Positions 4,664 to 6,111 of a stretch of DNA of 24,824 bases are shown one piece after another (position 1 is the stretch's first letter; the number at the start of each line of letters is the position of its first letter). Below the pieces are notes generated by a model that did not search any database, was not told where the DNA came from, and saw nothing but the letters and a program-made list of their open reading frames with translations. The stretch lies in the IMG/VR virus record IMGVR_UViG_3300050821_003111; one strand, given 5' to 3'. The translations under genes were made by a program, and so were the position numbers. The DNA is from a virus.

Positions 4664-5806
4664 TTATTCAATAATATGGGGTATAAAACAGCTTAAATTA
4701 TTAGTTATTGGACCTTCTGTTTCTCTTATACCTATACCAGCTGGATCCTGATCGATCATCCAACTTCCAAGAATAGGAGTATACCCTGATACAGAAGCGT
4801 TATAAAACTCCTGGAAGATATATCCTTCTTCTCCATAATCACCAGTAGTTTCTGTTTGAAGTTCCTTATTCTTGAAGATTTGAATGTTGGCACCCTCACG
4901 AGATAGAAGGGGCTTTTTAATATAATCCTTCATATCTCTAGGATCATTAAAGAATGAAGGAAGCAGATTTGGATGATTAGGAAATAACTCCCATAAGATA
5001 GGCAATAATCCTTTATTGGAAAACATCATCTTCCAGATTGGTTCTATCCATTGCATGGACTTATATGTCTTTAATGCATTGGATCCAAATGTTTCGTGAA
5101 CCATCCATTCCCACGGGTAGAGTTTGAATATAGACTCGATAGGATTGCCGGCCAGATCTACAAAACAATCAAGTTCCTTGTTCCATCCTAAATCCTTAAC
5201 AAAGATAGGAATTGTATTCGTAATTCCAGCTTCTATAGCTGTATCACGTATATAAGTAGCTGTCATGGTATCTTCCATCTCTATATCATCTATGTTTGTA
5301 AAGTATAGAGGTGATTCGAGATAACCTTTTAAATCTTTCCATTTATCTACTAGTTTCTCATGGATAGAATTAAATTGATCAGCTCCAGGGAACATAGCTT
5401 TCATCCAAAACCATTGGATTACACTGGCTTCTAATAATGCTGTTGGAGTGTCGGCGTTATATTCGAGTAATTTGGGATCTCCTTTACCATTATAGCCTAG
5501 ATCGAATCTGCCATAAAGTGCTGGAGGTTCTGTCTCCCAGGACCATTTAATAAGAGGAACCGCAGCTTCTGGAATCCCGAGCTTAGAAAACAGATTATAA
5601 TCTATGATATACTGCCCAGCTTTGAGACACATTTGCTGTAGATCATTAGTAGCCGATTCAAGCTTATCAATTTCAGACATAGTAAAGCTGTAATAAGCTG
5701 ATTCGTTCCAATAAGGTTTTCCATTACGTAACTTATGGTAAACCAAACCTTGTTCTCTGACTACATCTTCCCAATGTTTACGGGGAGGGATATCGTGTCT
5801 AATCAC
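4664..5806 (-). CDS. glutathionylspermidine-synthase-family ATP-grasp protein (YgiC/YjfC-like)
   Basis: Collinear with E. coli YgiC from start to end (PYW.E.AYY, QMCLK, RFDLGYNGKGDPKLLEYNADTPT, LYPWEWM, PNHPNLLP, FSREGANI, LGSWMIDQDPAGIGIRE, FIPHIIE). GTG start overlaps the upstream stop (GTGA). Confidence 0.9.
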   Translation of the reverse strand: MIRHDIPPRKHWEDVVREQGLVYHKLRNGKPYWNESAYYSFTMSEIDKLESATNDLQQMCLKAGQYIIDYNLFSKLGIPEAAVPLIKWSWETEPPALYGRFDLGYNGKGDPKLLEYNADTPTALLEASVIQWFWMKAMFPGADQFNSIHEKLVDKWKDLKGYLESPLYFTNIDDIEMEDTMTATYIRDTAIEAGITNTIPIFVKDLGWNKELDCFVDLAGNPIESIFKLYPWEWMVHETFGSNALKTYKSMQWIEPIWKMMFSNKGLLPILWELFPNHPNLLPSFFNDPRDMKDYIKKPLLSREGANIQIFKNKELQTETTGDYGEEGYIFQEFYNASVSGYTPILGSWMIDQDPAGIGIRETEGPITNNLSCFIPHIIE

Positions 5807-6111
5807 TCACCAGCTCCAAAACCACCTGCGGATGATCCAAATCCGCCGCGACTAATACCACTCTCTGGAGCAGTATAACTTCCACCTGTAGCATGAGATC
5901 CTATTGGATCATTAGATCTACTTGTATAATACCATCTGTAAGGATAATAACCATGTAAACTATTATGCTCAGAGTCATTACATTTGCTGGAATCTACTAT
6001 ATTACCTTGATCATCTGTGCAAACCTTGGATGTATTTGAATCACATCCTATAACCAATGAAGCCAGTGTAATTACTAAGCTTAAGGTTATGTTTTTACTG
6101 CTTTTACTCAT
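5803..6111 (-). CDS. small lipoprotein, DUF1190 (YgiB/YjfM)-like
   Basis: Signal peptide with lipobox LVIGC, paired Cys, and a Gly-rich C-terminus with RGGFG. Immediately upstream of and coupled to the YgiC-like gene, mirroring the ygiB-ygiC pairing. Confidence 0.65.
   Translation of the reverse strand: MSKSSKNITLSLVITLASLVIGCDSNTSKVCTDDQGNIVDSSKCNDSEHNSLHGYYPYRWYYTSRSNDPIGSHATGGSYTAPESGISRGGFGSSAGGFGAGE

Follow-up and report, generated by a model that had tools for sequence, protein, structure and literature searches.

In Escherichia coli, the ygiBC and yjfMC loci each encode a lipoprotein (YgiB or YjfM) followed by a stand-alone ligase of the GSP_synth family (YgiC or YjfC), and for decades neither pair has been assigned a physiological function. 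The ligases share the ATP-grasp synthetase fold and chemistry of GspS/Gss and trypanothione synthetase, enzymes that join a C-terminal carboxylate to a polyamine. In a 2025 review (PMC11762307, citing Pederick et al. 2023), YgiC and YjfC are described as having peptide-spermidine ligase activity in vitro, accepting small peptides, acting on peptide C-terminal carboxylates and not producing glutathionylspermidine. The RefSeq product name of both enzymes is 'peptide--spermidine ligase'. Here we describe a pair of the same layout in the virus record IMGVR_UViG_3300050821_003111, a 24,824-nucleotide stretch of DNA that we call the window, in which the gene of a 102-residue lipoprotein runs directly into the gene of a 380-residue ligase. 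We argue that the pair is, with good probability, a functional phage auxiliary module of bacterial origin that acts as one unit linking polyamine conjugation to the cell envelope, and we show that what accompanies ligases of this type is an exported protein with an RGGFG tail rather than the DUF1190 family of YgiB and YjfM as such.

The 380-residue protein matches the Pfam family GSP_synth (PF03738) with an expectation value (E) of 2.4e-144 and a score of 481.5 bits (cutoff 29.3). Its residues 12-379 cover profile positions 1-371 of 371, and this is the sole domain found; the CHAP amidase domain is absent by Pfam domain scan. It also matches phrog_6215. Against YgiC it aligns from end to end (residues 1-379 with 1-384, 43% identity, E = 9e-107) and against YjfC at 39% identity, collinear over the full length and all three without amidase, as the preliminary description of the window had proposed for YgiC. 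The best solved relatives in the Protein Data Bank include 7uk8 (YgiC, E = 7.5e-98) and 7uk6 (YjfC). Similarity to GspS, which has the amidase, and to trypanothione synthetase is far below that to YgiC (E ~1e-27 to 1e-30), and the model of the bifunctional enzyme (NF007801) gives 145.8 bits against a cutoff of 882, over synthetase positions 224-450 of 619 only. Of the positions conserved to at least 95% in 85 stand-alone homologues, the enzyme keeps all 69, including the block R-x-D...E-x-N-A-D-T-P-T (R100, D102, E115, N117, D119, T120, P121, T122). Compared with its counterparts in two related phage contigs, L092 and L094, the ratio of nonsynonymous to synonymous substitution rates (dN/dS) is 0.07-0.08. 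Since the family match is full-length, the conserved positions are all kept and dN/dS is low, the protein is an intact, amidase-less ATP-grasp ligase of the YgiC type. Its nearest homologues are bacterial, reaching 57% identity in Acidobacteriota-type metagenome-assembled genomes.

The lipoprotein begins with MSKSSKN-ITLSLVITLASLVI-GC, that is, a basic n-region, a hydrophobic core and the lipobox VIGC, the signal and lipobox taking up residues 1-23. A folded mini-domain is predicted for residues ~28-80, with a C31-C44 pair and the motifs YRWYY and GGSY, and the C-terminus is ISRGGFGSSAGGFGAGE, in which RGGFG occupies residues 88-92 and is followed by 10 more residues. RGGFG occurs only this once across the six reading frames of the window. 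In an AlphaFold2 model built from the family alignment, core residues 28-80 have a predicted local distance difference test score (pLDDT) of 76-94, and the tail (residues 88-102) stays below 60 and is predicted to be disordered. A fold search of this model against viral structures returned no match at E <= 0.001, the best being 1.4e-3 with a root-mean-square deviation of 11.6. The partners in L092 and L094 are 61-66% identical, with dN/dS of 0.15-0.20.

Neither Pfam nor NCBIfam has a family for this lipoprotein, and no PHROG match is convincing. A word-indexed search with it found 7 relatives. An exhaustive profile search raised the number to 911 cluster representatives at E <= 1e-3, with 290 at E <= 1e-10, mostly of 100-130 residues, in a family that is defined in the present analysis and whose profile is seeded by the window lipoprotein itself. 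In the family alignments (A1, A2) C31 and C44 are invariant, C23, R88, G89, F91 and G92 are nearly so, and the recurring motifs are CVD, a YRWYYGG-like stretch, GGSY and RGGFG. By these alignments the protein is a member of a large family of small lipoproteins that no database models.

A GSP_synth gene lies directly downstream of window-type lipoproteins in 6 of 6 evaluable contexts, at gaps of -4 to +11 nt. A survey anchored on the enzyme covered 80 bacterial loci (77 evaluable) from at least 6 phyla, with Acidobacteriota, Bacteroidota, Verrucomicrobiota, Actinomycetota, Pseudomonadota and others represented. Directly upstream of the enzyme, 68 of the 77 loci encode, by the strict motif, a protein that has a signal or anchor at its N-terminus and a tail of the R[GS]G[FY]G or [RK]GGFG type; once the variants RSGFG, EGFG and RGGAG are counted, the number is 76 of 77. 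The two genes overlap or lie at most 40 nt apart in 63 of the 68 loci, with 1-nt and 4-nt overlaps frequent. The cores of these partners fall into at least 5 dissimilar types: that of the window, a Bacteroidota type, a Verrucomicrobia type, a short YgiB-like type and an actinobacterial membrane-anchored type. Among 205 partner proteins, the distance from the motif to the C-terminus is 7-31 residues with a mode of 10 and never below 7, apart from one outlier of 72; beyond the motif, Gly, Ser and Ala predominate, and the protein ends in E, S, G, A or T. The RGGFG tail is the sole feature common to all partners of the stand-alone GSP_synth enzymes, and it is with an exported protein bearing this tail, rather than with DUF1190 as such, that the ligase gene travels.

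The same association is found in phages. An enzyme homologue is encoded in 139 GenBank phage records (57 from Acinetobacter phages, 42 from Aeromonas, 13 from Pseudomonas, 8 from Bacillus, and others). The lipoprotein itself, which is short and of low complexity, gave no tblastn match among GenBank phages, so its partners there were located by inspecting the neighbourhoods of the enzyme genes. In 7 of the 8 GenBank phages inspected, a tail lipoprotein lies adjacent to the enzyme gene or one or two genes upstream of it (phiRSL1, Motura, 44RR2.8t, KARL-1, LAh_8, Phosso and phage OC); none was found within the stretch examined of DSS3_VP1. In both IMG/VR contigs with a relative of the enzyme (L003 and L004), an RGGFG-tail lipoprotein overlaps the enzyme start, and the 4-nt overlap is identical in L003, L004, L092 and L094. 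The synteny across phages that the preliminary description had put forward for checking is thus borne out, as is its statement that the two-gene unit is carried intact, given the shared overlap in L092 and L094 and the purifying selection on both genes.

The closest enzyme homologues among GenBank phages by tblastn are those of phiRSL1 (47% identity) and Motura (44%). As in the window, a short RGGFG-tail lipoprotein (127-134 residues) is encoded directly upstream in both (ORF051-gsp and gp274-gp273). These partners align to the window family with hhalign probabilities of 96-98%, mainly through the signal peptide and the tail; their cores have a YgiB-like Y-x-x-x-x-D-C...W-G...C pattern, unlike the C-V/T-D...C / YRWYYGG of the window core. 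LAh_8, 44RR2.8t, Phosso, vB_OspM_OC and KARL-1 also have a stand-alone GSP_synth enzyme (36-43% identity) with an RGGFG-tail lipoprotein nearby, but there the partner is 175-202 residues long and scores as DUF1190 (22.7-123.9 bits), which the window partner does not. A pair of this kind is accordingly not unusual for a phage: besides the 139 records with the enzyme, several phages have a bona fide DUF1190 neighbour, and LAh_8 gp033 is already annotated 'putative DUF1190 domain-containing protein' beside gsp. Earlier phage papers mention gsp as a curiosity whose role is unclear (PMC1524935, PMC5587285). Delftia phage phiW-14 and Pseudomonas phages Lu11 and phiPMW are reported to have more distant GSP_synth homologues (PMC5587285). 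At 23-28% identity, these may belong to a different subfamily. The DNA of phiW-14 carries putrescinyl-thymine.

Several other genes are seen around gsp in phages. Potassium channel (Ion_trans_2) genes occur in L004, DSS3_VP1 and LAh_8, Band_7/SPFH proteins in L003 and 44RR2.8t, an SMR transporter in KARL-1 and a homospermidine synthase in Motura. A similar context, of PspA/band-7/polyamine operons, has been described around relatives of yjfM-yjfC (PMC11237479). The recurrence of these genes in phages suggests a wider polyamine/ion/membrane cassette of which the window carries just the two-gene core.

The preliminary description had called the 102-residue protein a DUF1190-type lipoprotein with the cysteine pattern of that family. 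Against Pfam DUF1190 (PF06693, gathering cutoff 22 bits), it gives no match even at E <= 10, and neither do the partners in L003 and L004. The positive controls score 187 bits (YgiB) and 63.9 bits (YjfM). Among the phage partners, Ochrobactrum phage OC (vB_OspM_OC) p242 scores 123.9 bits, Aeromonas phage LAh_8 gp033 108.9, Sinorhizobium phage Phosso 533 89.4, Aeromonas phage 44RR2.8t ORF096 77.5 and Acinetobacter phage KARL-1 gp024 22.7; Achromobacter phage Motura gp274 (20.9 bits) is just below the cutoff and Ralstonia phage phiRSL1 ORF051 (15.7 bits) below it. The sub-threshold matches of the short partners cover mostly the last ~25-50 profile positions, which form the RGGFG end. In length (102 residues against 212-223 for YgiB and YjfM) and in cysteines beyond the lipobox (one pair, C31 and C44, against two pairs in YgiB) the window protein differs from the E. 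coli lipoproteins; the DUF1190 core is characterised by two cysteine pairs and a Met/Gly-rich middle. What it does have in common with them is the lipobox, the motif R-G-G-[FY]-G in a Gly/Ser-rich tail near the C-terminus (TRGGFGES in YgiB, with 23 residues after the motif against 10 in the window) and the position directly upstream of GSP_synth.

These common features are the reason why one could still regard the protein as a true, shortened member of DUF1190. DUF1190 is moreover the commonest weak Pfam match in the family (12 of 150 members, best E = 0.0063), full-length hhalign gives probabilities of 95.8-98.5% (95.8% for the window family against strict DUF1190), and Motura gp274 and phiRSL1 ORF051 could be taken as intermediates, as both align to the window family. 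We reject the full-length comparison as proof of core homology and discount its probabilities, because trimming traces them to the signal peptide and the tail. Once the signal peptide is cut off, the alignment to strict DUF1190 shrinks to 14 columns around RGGFG, at a probability of 76%; the tail alone gives 74.5% over 14 columns, and the cores, with signal peptide and tail removed, give 3%. The score of the mature protein is 33.8, compared with 10.5 +/- 2.0 for a column-shuffled null. With the single sequence of YgiB as target, 13-14 columns align at 17-19%; a search for YgiB homologues recovered enterobacterial sequences more than 82% identical only, which add little diversity. Together with the missing Pfam match, half the length, the different cysteine content and the motifs YRWYYGG and GGSY, which are not in DUF1190, this makes true membership unlikely. 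At the level of these profile comparisons, the two families have the lipobox and the tail in common, with no homology detectable between their cores. The claim of a DUF1190-type lipoprotein is therefore withdrawn, since the protein is unmatched and belongs to a different small-lipoprotein family, the outcome that the description had itself named as speaking against it; its cysteine pattern goes with it. Its remark on the Gly-rich RGGFG tail was correct, and so in substance was the equation with YgiB/YjfM in position and function: exported, tailed with RGGFG and coupled to the ligase, the window lipoprotein is a functional analogue of YgiB and YjfM outside their Pfam family, and possibly a very distant relative of them.

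The way in which such a pair might act can be outlined from its homologues. The lipoprotein would be exported by the Sec/lipoprotein pathway and expose a disulfide-containing core of ~50 residues and a flexible, Gly/Ser-rich RGGFG tail, and the YgiC-type ligase, translated from the overlapping start codon, would stay in the cytoplasm. Using ATP, the ligase would activate the C-terminal carboxylate of a peptide as an acyl phosphate, which could then be amidated with spermidine or another host polyamine, as reported in vitro for the E. coli homologues. The pair would thereby act as a unit that couples the conjugation of polyamines to the infected cell's envelope, with a presumed target and a presumed benefit for the phage there. 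Several points weigh against this reading. The lipoprotein signal was assigned by inspection, by eye. The window has no other polyamine genes, a thinner metabolic context than, for example, that of Motura with its homospermidine synthase next door. Finally, according to the review the physiological substrate of YgiC and YjfC is still to be found (PMC11762307); the preliminary description, which had called the ligated substrate unknown, is in part overtaken by the in-vitro ligation of peptides to spermidine reported in 2023.

Since the two genes are coupled and the tail is universal among the partners, the readings that compete concern what the coupling is for. One of them makes the two proteins enzyme and substrate: the ligase would recognise R-G-G-F-G and amidate the C-terminal carboxylate of the lipoprotein ~10 residues further on with a polyamine, in the cytoplasm and before Sec export, so that a lipoprotein with a cationic, polyamine-tipped tail would end up in the periplasm. 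The tail is the only element kept across at least 5 dissimilar partner cores, its motif sits near the C-terminus within the narrow range given above (one 72-residue outlier), the last residue is small or Glu, 4-nt and 1-nt overlaps are widespread, and the tail is predicted to be disordered and should therefore be accessible. Modification of Sec substrates in the cytoplasm by an adjacently encoded enzyme has precedents in HMW1C with HMW1 and Aah with AIDA-I. Natural C-terminal Gly-spermidine conjugates of proteins are known for ubiquitin-like proteins (PMC12270671), and the enzyme family targets peptide C-terminal carboxylates (PMC11762307). On the other hand, there is a conflict of topology, as the enzyme is cytoplasmic and the tail ends up outside the cytoplasm; the actinobacterial partner is N-terminally membrane-anchored and probably inserted co-translationally, which would leave little time for modification; and the tail of YgiB runs on for longer after the motif. 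We regard the enzyme-substrate relation as a tentative proposal; of the readings, it accounts best for the restriction of conservation to the tail and for the limits on the tail's distance from the C-terminus. With the same reserve, R-G-G-F-G-x(7-13) could be the physiological acceptor, ligases of the YgiC/YjfC type could be protein C-terminal polyaminases that tag a co-encoded secreted partner, and phages could use them to place a polyamine-tipped lipoprotein in the envelope. If so, such a lipoprotein might, for example, stabilise the envelope, exclude superinfecting phages or manage the polyamine pool for DNA packaging.

Tail-only conservation, the constrained distance to the C-terminus and the tight translational coupling are left unexplained if the two proteins merely serve the same pathway, the ligase making a small soluble peptide-polyamine conjugate like glutathionylspermidine and the lipoprotein being an extracytoplasmic binder, sensor or envelope component that responds to or uses the conjugate or polyamines; the phage would then buffer or sequester polyamines and stabilise the envelope. 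We nevertheless consider this a serious possibility, if short of an even chance. The two proteins differ in topology, K+ channels, Band_7/SPFH proteins, an SMR transporter and homospermidine synthase recur nearby in phages and bacteria, and the PspA-linked operons offer the same kind of context (PMC11237479). DUF1190 has carried the label 'metal-chelating lipoprotein'. Moreover, YgiC and YjfC take small peptides in vitro (PMC11762307). That the two genes are chance neighbours, the lipoprotein being an unrelated phage protein such as an o-spanin or a superinfection exclusion factor, or the pair a decaying passenger, is very improbable. Phage lipoproteins do often act in lysis or exclusion, and there is a weak PHROG match to an Rz-like spanin (phrog_4306, E = 0.25), which is due to the lipobox and signal-peptide region. 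Yet the adjacency is kept across phyla and phages, no i-spanin partner or lysis cassette was found nearby, both genes have dN/dS values well under 1 and the enzyme retains every one of its 69 conserved positions, all of which speaks against chance adjacency, a spanin role and gene decay. The reading of the pair as one functional module of bacterial origin is the one we favour.

The module and its occurrence in phages are already known at the level of annotation, and the window would therefore not surprise a phage genomicist; taken by itself, the window is an ordinary case, a further phage in which a known module occurs with a partner whose family has no model. New with respect to databases and searchable papers are the membership of the partner in a large unmodelled family and the fact that the RGGFG tail, rather than DUF1190 as such, travels with the ligase. 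The comparison with ~80 bacterial and a dozen phage loci turns the long-standing substrate question into a simple test of tail amidation. The module is among the more widespread unexplained auxiliary cassettes of phages: T4-like phages of Acinetobacter and Aeromonas carry it, as do jumbo phages and uncultured ones. Its recurring neighbours, polyamine, K+ channel and SPFH genes, suggest that it helps to manage polyamines and the envelope during infection.

Table 1. Coordinates of the lipoprotein-ligase pair and surrounding features in the window, and of genes that recur beside the ligase gene in other phage contigs (contig name before the coordinates).
Feature	Coordinates	Strand	Source
Lipoprotein gene, 102 residues, ATG start	5803..6111	-	Open reading frame (ORF)
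Stand-alone GSP_synth (YgiC-type) ATP-grasp ligase gene, 380 residues, GTG start	4664..5806	-	ORF
GTGA overlap of lipoprotein stop TGA (5803-5805) and ligase start GTG (5804-5806)	5803..5806	-	Sequence
Shine-Dalgarno AGGAG, 6 nt before lipoprotein ATG	6118..6122	-	Start-codon context
tRNA-Arg(TCT) gene, 20 nt upstream of lipoprotein ORF	6132..6208	-	ARAGORN
C-terminal RGGFG tail RGGFGSSAGGFGAGE of lipoprotein, motif at nt 5850	5806..5850	-	Sequence
Basic micro-ORF, 46 residues, beginning 2 nt past ligase stop	4521..4661	-	ORF
Hydrophobic micro-ORFs, 55 and 43 residues, chained	4354..4521, 4221..4352	-	ORFs
Recurrent-neighbour genes	L004 3020..3571; L088 502..1488; L097 1076..1450; L003 2608..3636; L096 541..882; L086 1..1113		

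The layout of the locus is summarized in Table 1. As the preliminary description had noted, the lipoprotein stop overlaps the GTG start of the ligase, and this stop/start overlap is an arrangement of translational coupling; GGAG, a Shine-Dalgarno-like sequence, lies ~8 nt upstream of the GTG. In E. coli the lipoprotein gene likewise comes first and the ligase gene next, but with gaps of 5 nt (ygiBC) and 2 nt (yjfMC), and unlike those pairs the one in the window is phage-borne and adjoins tRNA genes. A promoter and terminator scan of the region gave counts not above the shuffled expectation. The ligase gene is followed by the 46-residue micro-ORF, two membrane-type micro-ORFs and a metallophosphoesterase gene.

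In L092 and L094 the lipoprotein-ligase pair is intact, and the tRNA-Arg(TCT) gene, which is upstream of the pair in the window, is found downstream of the ligase gene (6449..6523 in L092, 4261..4335 in L094). Since it stands on opposite sides, pair and tRNA have swapped their relative order, with the pair kept together. The 46-residue micro-ORF is not called by public gene callers. Its product is 54-70% identical to those in L092 and L094, with dN/dS of 0.13-0.32; it matches no family, and a homologue search with its alignment found nothing elsewhere. The micro-ORF is thus a real, conserved small gene that begins just past the ligase stop, as had been stated, but it is a neighbour and not integral to the pair, because in L092 and L094 the tRNA-Arg gene separates it from the ligase gene. 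The 55- and 43-residue micro-ORFs (4221..4521, minus strand) each have one predicted membrane helix. They are not present in L092 and L094, where the intergenic distance is ~230 nt, compared with ~460 nt in the window.

The window as a whole looks like an accessory region of a large phage. Nearly all of its genes share one strand; among them are five tRNA genes and genes for two RNA ligases, a Thg1-like enzyme, NAMPT, NMNAT-Nudix, a peptide deformylase and SSB, and this content, with further genes that have PHROG matches, speaks for a phage origin of the window. No close DNA relative turned up when the region was searched by megablast against GenBank phages; the sole matches, 42 nt of tRNA in Enterococcus phages, say nothing about identity or host. 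PADLOC defence models gave zero matches.

Elsewhere in the window, two further features on the minus strand may be mentioned. The 806-residue protein encoded at 11100..13520 gave no match in PHROG or PADLOC. It matches Pfam MVP_shoulder (92.3 bits), Vault_3 (40.6) and Band_7 (23.8), all above threshold, and is thus a major-vault-protein-like protein in a phage, flanked by Thg1-like and SpoU methylase genes. The stretch 13541..24162 holds a dense accessory cluster for RNA repair and NAD salvage, with a Thg1-like tRNA-His guanylyltransferase, an Rnl1-type and a second RNA ligase, NAMPT and NMNAT-Nudix; downstream of it are NADAR and SpoU methylase genes, and tRNA genes are interspersed.

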